Notes: generated by a model from the sequence alone, not told the origin. A stretch of 9,898 nt of DNA from a virus (IMGVR_UViG_2698536372_000014); one strand, 5' to 3'; positions 336 through 9,875 are shown, counted from the stretch's first letter. Numbers and translations are program-made.

Positions 336-1577
336 TCATGCTTTCCACTTCAGGACACCCGAATTTCTCGCGTGCATTAAAAAACGAATCAGCAACAACA
401 GCTGGCTGCCGTGTTTTTCTTCAAAATCTTTTACCCCAGCGTGCAGTTCGTTATGACATTTACGGCACAGCGGAATAACAAACAAATCATCAGCCTTTGT
501 TCCCATCCCTCCCAGTCCATGACCAATGATGTGATGCGGATCATCTGAATTTCTCGCGTGCATTAAAAAACGAATCAGCAACAACAGCTGGCTGCCGTGT
601 TTTTCTTCAAAATCTTTTACCCCGGCGTGTAGTTCGCTATGGCATTTACGGCACAGCGGAATAACAAACAAATCATCAGCCTTTGTTCCCATCCCTCCCA
701 GTCCATGACCAATGATGTGATGCGGATCATCTGCCTGATTACCGCACGTCATGCATTTCTGCGTTTTTACCCAGCGCGTGTATACAGGCATCTCTTCCCG
801 TTGTGGTTTCTGGCGCTGGAGATACTGAGCCGGTGACTCCGGATCAACGGCAATGCTGACCACCGTCTTTTCCTGTGGCGGGTTTTGCTGGTGGGCGTGA
901 GGCAGCGGCGCAAGATTTTTTGTGCGCTGCTTCAGTATGATGGTGGCGGTCTGCTCTCCCGGTACGATGTCGCTTTCACGGTACATTGAGCGGATTTTTT
1001 CCGCACGCAACCCCAGCGAACGACGTAATACCGCTTCCGGTAGCGCGTCCGCCACCTGATTGCGGACCGCCCACCAGGATAATTCAGCCAGAGATAATTC
1101 ACGCTCCTGCGTACCGCTTATTGCGTGACCGATGACGTCAATCATCCATGCTGACAGGTTTTGATGAGCAAGTTGCTCGAGTGATTCGGATGTCTGGTCA
1201 CGCAGCTGGTTGTCGCAGTGCCAGCACAACACCATTGCGCCGGTACCGTAACGGTGAATGACGGTTTCACTGTGATGATAGTCACCATGAGGCCACTGGC
1301 AGGATTTGACATGACGCAACAGCCAGTCAGACAGTGCACCAGCGCCACCAACAGCACGAATCACACGCTCATTGCTGAAAAACGGCAGTAATGATTTATC
1401 CTCCGCCAGCGGCTGGCGAACGGCAGGGACGATGCCGGACGGCAGACCGCGCATGCTTTTCGGTTCCGGCTCCACAAGCACTCGAGGGTTATGGAATACC
1501 TGCATGGATTCACGGCCTGGTTTAAGGACCACCAACCCAAGTTCCGGTACCGGAACAGGTCGAAGTAATACCCGCAC
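336..1577 (-). CDS. DUF968 / Ref-like HNH (beta-beta-alpha-Me) nuclease-family prophage protein, YdfU-like, with an internal in-frame tandem duplication
   Basis: 413-aa ORF with GTG start at 1577 preceded by GGAGG 5 nt upstream. The C-terminus holds a 62-aa segment (HHIIGHGLGGMGTKADDLFVIPLCRKCH[S/N]ELHAGVKDFEEKHG...) present twice in tandem; His/Cys spacing resembles HNH-type metal sites. Position between hok/rem and rusA matches the nin-region DUF968 gene of Qin-like prophages. Family assignment is from memory, not a search. Confidence 0.7.
   Translation of the reverse strand: MRVLLRPVPVPELGLVVLKPGRESMQVFHNPRVLVEPEPKSMRGLPSGIVPAVRQPLAEDKSLLPFFSNERVIRAVGGAGALSDWLLRHVKSCQWPHGDYHHSETVIHRYGTGAMVLCWHCDNQLRDQTSESLEQLAHQNLSAWMIDVIGHAISGTQERELSLAELSWWAVRNQVADALPEAVLRRSLGLRAEKIRSMYRESDIVPGEQTATIILKQRTKNLAPLPHAHQQNPPQEKTVVSIAVDPESPAQYLQRQKPQREEMPVYTRWVKTQKCMTCGNQADDPHHIIGHGLGGMGTKADDLFVIPLCRKCHSELHAGVKDFEEKHGSQLLLLIRFLMHARNSDDPHHIIGHGLGGMGTKADDLFVIPLCRKCHNELHAGVKDFEEKHGSQLLLLIRFLMHARNSGVLKWKA
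361..732. repeat. Direct tandem duplication, 2 x 186 bp (361-546 and 547-732), inside the DUF968 gene
   Basis: The two units are identical except for 4 substitutions clustered within 19 bp (copy-1 positions 438, 444, 451, 456). Unit length is a multiple of 3, so the frame is preserved; 3 of the 4 differences are synonymous and 1 gives Asn/Ser. Confidence 0.9.
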
Positions 1578-2752: not shown

Positions 2753-2776
2753 CCGATATGGGAATTCCCATATCGG
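2753..2776. repeat. Perfect 24-bp palindrome CCGATATGGGAATTCCCATATCGG
   Basis: 10-bp arms around a central AATT; lies between the SBP gene stop and the hok locus. Possible protein-binding site or hairpin. Confidence 0.6.
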
Positions 2777-2895
2777 AATGAATTCAGTTCACCTGGCGAG
2801 GCTTAGCGTACAATTTTTTCCGTTTTGTGAGCTGCCCCTACATGCCGCTGGCGCGGCATCCGGAAAAAGAATCCACGTCCTGAAGGACGAGGATG

Positions 2896-3654
2896 TCAAG
2901 TGCCTTTCCTGGTCCAGCCATATTTTTTGAATGCAGGCGCCGCTTCATCGGTTTGTAGCCATTCTGCAAATCGACGGGTTTCATCATTTGCATCCTGACG
3001 TACTGTAATGTTCATATCACGCCATATCACGTAGTCTGGCGCTATTTCCACGACATCACCAATTTCTGGATTACTGGCTGCCCAGTCAGCCCAGGTTATC
3101 CAGACATCTGCTCCAGGCTGATTCTCAAGAGCCTTACGTGCAGTTCCGCTATTGGGCGCATATAAAATAATATTTTTTCGGATTGCGGCGACAGTTTCTA
3201 TATTCCCTTTACGTCCGGCAATATCTTCCCAGACGCCAGTGCCTGATGTATTACTGGTACCACCACCATCATTAACAATTACGCCAATCCCAGGTCTGGT
3301 CAGGTCGTCAATACTCCGGATATTTTTAGGATTACCTTTCTTTACCAGTAAAATACTTTTTCGCAGATAAAGAGGCTGAATATCTTTTTCACTGAAGCTG
3401 TCTTTATGGTCCCGAATGATAGCCAGAGCAGATTGTTCTGATGCGCCAAACAAGATATCTGCATTTTTTTTGGCATCTTCATTCCATTTGTTCTGTGGGC
3501 CGTAATGAACGTTCACTATAATACCTGTTTTTTCGGCATAAAGTTTGGCTGCATCAAGCAAGGCTGTATGCGGGCCACCAGGACCATACAGATTGATATC
3601 AGCATAAGCAGCAGAAGACAGGAATATTAAAAAACCTGCCATTATGTTCCTCAT
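2896..3654 (-). CDS. Periplasmic substrate-binding protein, ModA/AcfC-like, with signal peptide; orphan (no permease or ATPase partner in window)
   Basis: 252-aa ORF with ATG at 3654 and AAGGAG 7 nt upstream. N-terminal signal peptide MRNIMAGFLIFLSSAAYA; the C-terminal AFKKYGW resembles the ModA-type ending. AT-rich codon usage and an AT-rich upstream region (3655-3900) suggest foreign origin. Confidence 0.7.
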   Translation of the reverse strand: MRNIMAGFLIFLSSAAYADINLYGPGGPHTALLDAAKLYAEKTGIIVNVHYGPQNKWNEDAKKNADILFGASEQSALAIIRDHKDSFSEKDIQPLYLRKSILLVKKGNPKNIRSIDDLTRPGIGVIVNDGGGTSNTSGTGVWEDIAGRKGNIETVAAIRKNIILYAPNSGTARKALENQPGADVWITWADWAASNPEIGDVVEIAPDYVIWRDMNITVRQDANDETRRFAEWLQTDEAAPAFKKYGWTRKGT

Positions 3655-3818
3655 AAAAAACTCCTTTTATTGGTTATCATGAAATAAAGTTATAAACACT
3701 ACAAATAATATATATTACATCCAGATAAACTTATCCGACTTTACCTCGTGCATAGCTTGTTATTTAAAGTCAACAAAATAAGGAAAATTATACGCATATT
3801 GAAGAGTATAAACCTTAC

Positions 3819-3846
3819 ATGTTGATTACATTTTTGTAATCAACAT
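3819..3846. promoter_or_regulatory. Inverted repeat ATGTTGATTAC-N6-GTAATCAACAT in the AT-rich region upstream of the SBP gene
   Basis: 11-bp perfect arms with a 6-bp AT spacer, about 170 bp upstream of the SBP start; candidate operator. Function is inferred. Confidence 0.3.
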
Positions 3847-3905
3847 CCTGTTTGGAATAGCCAGCCTTTAATGGATAACTATTTCTGACAATGCAATGAG
3901 TATAA

Positions 3906-4598
3906 TCAAGTCCATCTTCCACTGAGAATTAGAGGCGGCATGCTTTTTCCGGCTCTTGCCGGATATCCGTAATTGTCCATAATCTGCAGATTTATACCTT
4001 CTGCATGACCTGTCAGCGAAAATTTGTCCGGTGTTTCTACGGGAATGACATCAAAAGTTACACGCACTCGCGTTACCGTGTAGACCTACTTTCCTGCACT
4101 TGCAAGATCACAGTGGTGTAACCGTAACAGGAATTTATTCTCTGGACCGGCAGTAAATCCCTGAGTGGCGTGGTTCCCATATCAATTTCCCGCCAGGCAG
4201 CCTCCATTGCCAGCGTACAGGCTGGAGCCATGACCTGCCCTTTAAATCTGGCCCGACCATCCCACCGGACGTGTTCTTCTCCCCTGAACTTAGGTACAGT
4301 CATCTCCAGTGGCACAAAAGTGTCAGCGCCATAATTTTTGACCGTTATCGCGCTACGGATATTTTGTTGACTGGTGAAAATCACCCCGCAGAATCAGGCT
4401 TATTCCCTTAACCTGGGCTTTCATCCTGACCGCCGCCTCACTACGACCAATCAGACTGCCGATGCATTTTACCTTCATTGTTAGTATCATGATTTCAGGC
4501 CTGCACCATCCGCTCATTGCCCGGACTTCCGACAAATCCCGGCAACCATATCCCGGTGCTTGTTCAGCTCCCGCAGCGCGGCGCAGACTCGCTCCCAC
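3906..4598 (-). pseudogene. Degraded gene remnant(s): three adjacent minus-strand ORF fragments in alternating frames
   Basis: Fragments at 4598-4353 (only the part below 4514 is free of the upstream gene), 4384-4073 (103 aa, GTG start) and 4085-3906 (about 50 aa, FSLTGHAEGINLQIMDNYGYPARAG..., no usable start). None has a convincing start/SD. Identity unknown; only a weak, uncertain resemblance to a MOSC-like beta-barrel fold. Confidence 0.3.
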
Positions 4599-9822: not shown

Positions 9823-9875
9823 TTTCTGGTGACGTTTGGCGGTATCAGTTTTACTCCGTGACTGCTCTGCCGCCC
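9823..9875 (+). ncRNA. dicF: DicF small regulatory RNA (antisense inhibitor of ftsZ translation) with its 3' terminator
   Basis: TTTCTGGTGACGTTTGGCGGTATCAGTTTTACTCCGTGACTGCTCTGCCGCCC followed by TTTTT matches the 53-nt DicF sequence as I recall it, including the terminal GC stem and U-tract. Confidence 0.8.

Follow-up and report, generated by a model that had tools for sequence, protein, structure and literature searches.

The Locus and Its Genes

The stretch of DNA considered here, referred to as the window, comprises 9,898 nucleotides of a virus, and its genes, read along the coding strand, come in the order immunity (dicA/dicC-like), replication, DUF1627, a small ORF, a decayed fimbrial gene, paa, hok/sok, rem and DUF968/ydfU. 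The paa gene, also called adfO, occupies positions 2896–3654 of the minus strand and runs from an ATG start for 252 amino acids; its annotation as a periplasmic binding protein of the AcfC/PEB3 family draws on the ORF, Pfam, PDB matches and the RefSeq and PPompW annotations. A ribosome-binding site, AAGGAG (3661–3666, minus strand), can be read 6 nt before the ATG, and a sequence-only reading of the stretch had rightly called it strong; the motif AAAAGGA at this site shows no variation in three plasmid alleles of the gene. The same reading had the gene sitting alone, which is true with respect to transporter genes but not otherwise, as paa is flanked by a fimbrial pseudogene on one side and hok/sok on the other.

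The identity of the gene was settled by database comparison. A 1.4 kb query around paa gave 100% DNA identity to E. coli records in which RefSeq names the gene “paa: AcfC family adhesin Paa”. There were 563 E. coli records that matched this query at 99% or more, and at least 80% of the query was covered in 577 of 5,426 complete genomes, with O157:H7, O26, O103 and O111 included among the serogroups of the matching genomes. Over its full length the window shares 99.9% identity with the PPompW prophages, in which the gene is annotated as [quoted passage not shown], and a review equates adfO with z2053 of OI-57 and with Paa. Judged by sequence identity, the gene is thus paa/adfO, or z2053, of O-island 57/prophage CP-933O of EHEC, and it does not differ from the gene for Paa/AdfO of attaching-and-effacing E. 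coli. The neighbours in the PPompW and RefSeq loci, namely hokD/ckf, the fimbrial pseudogene, DUF1627 and the replication genes, are likewise those of the window.

As a whole, the locus is best explained, with a probability of roughly 0.9, as carrying the known moron paa/adfO, cargo of a lambdoid prophage for which ompW serves as the integration site in EHEC and in E. coli related to it. This is an already known and well-documented virulence-associated gene, and there is nothing new in its identity. The suggestion from sequence alone that it may be a lysogenic-conversion gene accordingly stands as the published view of paa/adfO, but not as a new idea. The gene is a recognised marker in the risk profiling of Shiga-toxin-producing E. 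coli and a textbook-style case of a prophage-borne colonisation factor, a picture to which confirmation adds nothing new.

A Variable Slot in a Lambdoid Prophage

Homology to the lambdoid phage backbone ends at about position 2755 and returns at about 4545, with the backbone resuming at hok/sok directly downstream of paa. At the same site in vB_EcoS-813R8, mEp460_ev081 and Rac-SA53, unrelated ORFs lie between hok and the replication genes. Together, the break in the backbone and the unrelated ORFs in relatives put paa in a cargo slot of variable content, immediately upstream of hok/sok. The comparison shows this slot to extend from about 2756 to 4544, in the early region of the lambdoid prophage between the replication/DUF1627 genes and hok/sok. 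Conserved flanks enclosing other cargo in relatives are what is looked for in a moron, and the proposal that paa is a prophage moron was thereby borne out by the comparison of the site across related prophages. Coverage of the 9.9 kb window reached 80% or more in 554 genomes, compared with 577 for the paa region, and paa is therefore tightly linked to this prophage and almost always found in the same context.

Directly downstream of paa, the minus strand carries the hok/mok toxin gene (published as ckf, z2054) and the sok antisense region (2405–2707), identified from the ORF, Rfam and the hokD annotation. The sok match itself spans 2558–2707 and scores 103.9 bits (E 2.7e-23) with Rfam. The review describes ckf (z2054) as a constant companion of adfO. 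A separate observation is that a perfect 24-bp palindrome, CCGATATGGGAATTCCCATATCGG, lies at 2753–2776, exactly where the lambdoid backbone homology ends and just upstream of the hok/sok leader.

On the other side of paa is a degraded PixH-like fimbrial subunit gene (3860–4348, minus strand) with frameshifts and internal stops, recognised from a RefSeq pseudogene record, translation and tblastn. RefSeq labels it “fimbrial protein, frameshifted; internal stop”, and in a three-frame translation it is spread over two reading frames. A tblastn search of plasmids matched it to PixH of the ETEC B7A plasmid pEB2 with 74.5% amino acid identity over residues 8–164 of 178, and a Pfam search with the reconstructed product returned no match. 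PixH is a subunit of the plasmid-borne Pix fimbriae. The similarity to PixH ends some 14 codons short of the end of the frame, and this 3′ cut-off is precisely where the paa cassette described below begins. The idea that paa was part of an ancestral Pix-type operon was considered and rejected, as in intact operons it is the usher gene, and not paa, that comes after pixH; the arrangement in the prophage is therefore a mosaic and not the remnant of a fimbrial operon. The decayed gene indicates that fimbrial plasmids and this prophage have exchanged DNA in the past.

A Compact Cassette Common to Prophages and Plasmids

The base composition of the region sets paa apart from its surroundings. The window has a GC content of 48.5%, while the paa ORF has 43.9% (40.8% in its 5′ half, 47.0% in its 3′ half and 34.8% at third codon positions) and the region upstream of it, at 3655–3900, has only 28.5%, a value that puts it in the bottom 0.7% of 246-bp windows. 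The description of the gene and its upstream region as strongly AT-rich is therefore accurate for the upstream region, but the gene shows only a moderate AT bias. The paa cassette as a whole has 41.6% GC compared with 49.4% in the remainder of the window, the kind of compositional difference that is looked for in a moron. From this AT-richness, silencing of paa by H-NS is plausible. A literature search on H-NS or other regulators of paa turned up no paper on paa and H-NS, the sole finding being that Fur does not control paa.

The extent of the cassette emerged from its occurrence outside the prophage. A segment of about 1.02 kb (2836–3858, minus strand), made up of the upstream region, the gene and its hairpins, is found with 86–89% identity on ETEC and STEC plasmids; the part common to prophage and plasmids runs in the window from 2836 to a point between 3848 and 3858, that is, from the inverted repeat through two hairpins at the 3′ end. 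Those two hairpins lie just past the stop codon (2835–2897, minus strand), and the first, which is followed by UUCUUUUU, is terminator-like according to a terminator scan. They have a fold energy of −29.7 kcal/mol (z-score −2.85) and are kept in the plasmid alleles, and the placement of a hairpin and U-tract directly after the stop codon predicts that paa has a terminator of its own.

There were 41 plasmid records with a paa allele of 80–90% identity, the majority from conjugative IncF plasmids of porcine, bovine and human origin. The ETEC/STEC plasmid alleles have the same cassette of about 1.02 kb, with the core of the palindrome, the ribosome-binding site, the 252-amino acid ORF and the two 3′ hairpins, but differ by 11–14% DNA divergence, by imperfect palindrome arms and by flanks of plasmid replication genes, toxin–antitoxin genes and IS elements. 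These alleles, on IncF plasmids and near STa, are annotated as “substrate-binding domain-containing protein”. Some adjoin a heat-stable enterotoxin gene and IS elements, and paa is thus a gene that also travels with enterotoxin genes. On plasmid pCFS3246-1 (L004 8746–8961), for example, a paa allele lies about 2 kb from sta1, which is itself located between copies of IS1. What moves is a compact cassette of around 1 kb that is common to prophages and enterotoxin plasmids.

The Upstream Palindrome and a Candidate Promoter

At the upstream edge of the cassette is a perfect inverted repeat, ATGTTGATTACA-AAAA-TGTAATCAACAT (3819–3846, unstranded), characterised by repeat search, shuffles and folding. 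Its perfect 12-nt arms (3819–3830 and 3835–3846) are separated by a 4-nt spacer, so that the repeat with 11-bp arms noted upstream of the gene from the sequence alone is indeed present and slightly longer than had been thought. When the window was shuffled with its dinucleotides preserved, a perfect repeat with 11-nt arms turned up anywhere in just 3% of the shuffles, and the z-score of the hairpin energy is −6.3. The core of the repeat, ATTACAAAAATGTAATCAA (6–7 bp), is invariant in three diverged plasmid alleles, with variation at the outer positions of the arms. No compensatory changes were seen in the repeat among the plasmid alleles, and a role as an RNA hairpin is therefore unsupported; what the pattern mildly suggests is a site recognised as DNA. 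A further possibility, that the repeat is there only as coding sequence for the last residues of the fimbrial frame (…DVDYKNVINM, then stop), was rejected because similarity to PixH gives out at residue 164 of 178, ahead of the repeat, and because plasmid cassettes without the fimbrial gene keep the repeat.

Among the fetched loci (about 1 Mb), the 14-mer TTACAAAAATGTAA was found only upstream of paa genes, and one of these occurrences is independent, in Providencia alcalifaciens. There, TTACAAAAATGTAAT-N5-TGTAA lies 126 bp upstream of the start codon of the homologue (L010 5875–5905), with the same layout as in the window. The P. alcalifaciens homologue (L010 4475–5620) also adjoins an ORF that reads as a tyrosine integrase-like gene, which suggests, from the sequence reading, that it resides on a genomic island.

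A scan for sigma-70 consensus sites gave none inside the paa cassette, the sole match lying outside it (3928–3899), and the window as a whole had no more promoter-like sites than shuffled sequences. When the scan was relaxed, the only addition within the cassette was a candidate −10 hexamer, TATAAT (3787–3792, minus strand), with no recognisable −35 sequence. This hexamer, unchanged in each of the four alleles aligned, lies 27 bp downstream of the inverted repeat, the centre of which would be near −52 of a putative start site. Speculatively, transcription of paa probably starts from a promoter internal to the cassette, and a TATAAT lacking a −35 sequence, with a palindrome near −52, would fit activator dependence and/or silencing of AT-rich DNA. 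It could also be imagined, though with rather low confidence, that the palindrome TTACA-AAAA-TGTAAT, with a further TGTAA one helical turn on, is the operator of a transcription factor; it may loosely resemble OmpR-type sites. If so, the cassette of about 1 kb would carry a host-signal-responsive switch along with it into a prophage, plasmid or genomic island. The conserved palindrome at the upstream edge of the cassette is in any case a concrete candidate for the regulation of paa.

The Paa Protein

The sequence-only reading had described the product as a ModA/AcfC-like binding protein. The AcfC half of this description was confirmed, as Paa matches the Pfam family SBP_bac_11 (PF13531) at 5.5e-34 with 118 bits (cut-off 25), and aligns in the PDB, over residues 11–248, with PEB3 of Campylobacter jejuni (2hxw, 3fir, 3fjg; E 1.2e-81) and AcfC of Vibrio cholerae (VC_0841, 4jb7; E 3.5e-81). 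This near-full-length similarity and the SBP_bac_11 fold place Paa in a PEB3/AcfC/Paa clade, and show the 252-amino acid precursor to have the predicted type-II periplasmic binding-protein fold of that clade. The ModA half was imprecise. Paa has in common with Sbp, CysP and ModA a fold at the level of the Pfam clan and weak local similarity near the anion-binding loop, but the NCBIfam models for sulfate, thiosulfate and molybdate binding proteins score only 17.7–22.6 bits on Paa, against cut-offs of 62.5–470, and paa has neither a permease nor an ATPase gene next to it. The combination of an Sbp/CysP/ModA-type score, a permease and an ATPase that marks a canonical binding protein of an ABC importer is thus not found for Paa.

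Codons 1–18 (3601–3654, minus strand) encode a predicted Sec signal peptide, MRNIMAGFLIFLSSAAYA, with cleavage expected before D19, based on sequence features and the alignment with PEB3. The N-terminus, MRNIMAGFLIFLSSAAYA|DINLYG, can be read as a charged n-region, a hydrophobic core and an A-x-A site, and has no lipobox cysteine, so that a cleavable Sec signal of the non-lipoprotein kind is predicted. The crystallised mature chains of PEB3 start exactly at the residue that aligns with D19 of Paa, the first one after the predicted 18-residue signal peptide.

The ligand loop of PEB3 can be traced in Paa by alignment to S134–D144 (codons at 3231–3263, minus strand), where the sequence SNTSGTGVWED is identical in the two proteins and T136/S137 of Paa align with T138/S139 of PEB3. 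The latter two residues are reportedly involved in ligand binding. Across 34 clade members, four of the 11 loop residues (G140, W142, E143 and D144) are matched in at least 90%, a further six (N135–T139 and V141) in 75–90%, and S134 in less than 75%. The alignment shows a predicted anion-binding loop of the PEB3 type that is intact in Paa. There are differences, too. Residue K135 of PEB3 is said to matter for the stabilisation of the ligand, and it is consistent with such a role that position 135 is E or K depending on the PDB entry; its counterpart in Paa is T133, which counts against a small-anion mechanism for Paa. Similarly, “DFNVS” of PEB3 aligns with “DSFSEKD” of Paa, which does not have the asparagine of that motif, presumably the N-glycosylated residue of PEB3. 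The gene for PEB3, an orphan like paa, is chromosomal, while paa is carried on prophages and plasmids.

How Paa May Promote Colonisation

A contribution of paa/adfO to adherence and colonisation goes back to Batisson 2003 and Ho 2008, as these studies are summarised in later papers, and the review describes an adfO mutant with reduced adherence that also released fewer of several proteins. The gene is reported to be induced in the contents of the bovine rumen and rectum, and to be expressed in EDL933. For AcfC, 47% identity to Paa has been reported, and the protein was shown experimentally to be periplasmic (PMC5976639). [quoted passage not shown] Like Paa, AcfC is associated with colonisation and encoded on a horizontally acquired element, although this is the Vibrio pathogenicity island and not a lambdoid prophage, and its phenotype is one of chemotaxis to mucin and hyperinfectivity rather than of adhesion to cells. 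PEB3 is likewise periplasmic according to the literature, and its listed ligands are phosphoenolpyruvate (PEP) and 3-phosphoglycerate.

From these likenesses we infer, as an account that on balance seems somewhat probable, that exported Paa has a small anion, phosphorylated or sulfated, as its ligand and promotes colonisation indirectly, and not as a surface adhesin. Paa would leave the cytoplasm by Sec export, its small phosphorylated or sulfated ligand would be held in the cleft between the two lobes of the protein, and an indirect effect on colonisation would follow through sensing, chemotaxis or a membrane partner encoded elsewhere.

The original interpretation, which lies behind the names of the gene, holds Paa to be a genuine adhesin, either at the surface or secreted, with a host receptor as its direct target. 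The RefSeq name “AcfC family adhesin Paa” still reflects this, paa and adfO mutants are described in the literature as adhering less well, and PEB3 and Paa are regarded there as adhesins. Counting against such a role is a soluble periplasmic binding-protein fold that has a conserved small-anion loop, and Paa has neither an anchor nor a lipobox, and no autotransporter domain. AcfC, its homologue, is recovered from the periplasmic fraction and had no role in adhesion, and the loss from the adfO mutant of the release of several unrelated proteins suggests that the effect on adherence is indirect. Direct adhesion by Paa is accordingly considered rather unlikely, and an indirect effect of a periplasmic, anion-binding Paa is preferred.

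A binding protein may also simply serve uptake, and Paa might feed an unlinked chromosomal ABC transporter, for example for 3-phosphoglycerate, PEP or sulfate, and so provide a nutritional advantage in the gut. The fold, the weak similarity to sulfate- and molybdate-binding proteins and the listing of PEP and 3-phosphoglycerate as ligands of PEB3 agree with this, and a growth benefit of 3-phosphoglycerate reportedly depends on PEB3, which also counts for uptake. As the sequence-only reading had noted, however, there are no transporter partners at the locus: no ORF with a Walker A motif plus LSGGQ was found in the 9.9 kb window, and no transporter gene is annotated within 9 kb on either side of paa in an identical genome. 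The question was extended to 80 loci, one genome per species, in which ORFs within 6 kb were searched for a Walker A motif with an LSGGQ-type signature after it. The clade set, with species of E. albertii, Citrobacter, Edwardsiella, Providencia, Aeromonas, Francisella and Vibrio among its sources, consisted of the 34 loci whose product had 34% or more identity to Paa, and the remaining 46 encoded more distant binding proteins. An ABC ATPase ORF was present at just one of the 34 clade loci, where it was 5 kb off, as opposed to 25 of the 46 distant loci, where it was usually about 2 kb downstream on the same strand. The V. cholerae acfC locus (L018) was among those with no ABC ATPase gene within 6 kb. 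Being encoded without a cognate ABC permease or ATPase is therefore not peculiar to the prophage copy but holds for the clade, and this clade-wide lack argues for a role other than feeding an adjacent importer. With paa moving as a solitary cassette between plasmids and prophages, and the curated sulfate and molybdate models scoring far under their cut-offs, a function in uptake seems quite improbable next to the sensing, chemotaxis or unlinked-partner role favoured for Paa above.

It is very improbable indeed that paa is a silent passenger, foreign, AT-rich DNA that H-NS holds silent and that does nothing for the lysogen, since the very AT-rich upstream region, the failure to find a consensus promoter and the decay of the neighbouring fimbrial gene have to be set against an ORF that is intact and matched at 99% or more across several EHEC serogroups, its reported induction in bovine digestive contents, the reported mutant phenotypes and the persistence of diverged yet intact alleles on plasmids and in other genera.

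Other Features of the Window

The sole difference between the window and the PPompW and RefSeq references is an in-frame 186-bp tandem duplication in the DUF968/ydfU ORF (336–1577, minus strand). The duplicated segment spans 361–732, with copies at 361–546 and 547–732 that are 97% identical, and it repeats the C-terminal Cys/His-rich block, so that the product has 413 amino acids compared with 351 in the PPompW record. The best-matching phage and genome records listed are all without it and align as 9,712 bp in two pieces; the duplication could be strain-specific or an assembly artefact.

An Rfam scan of the whole window, with E values up to 0.1, gave two real matches, sok and the small RNA DicF. 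Nothing was matched in the upstream region of paa, and isrK and snoRNA matches in the window fell below their gathering scores. DicF (9824–9875, plus strand) matches the full Rfam model with 76.7 bits and marks the prophage as one of the Qin/dicB type.
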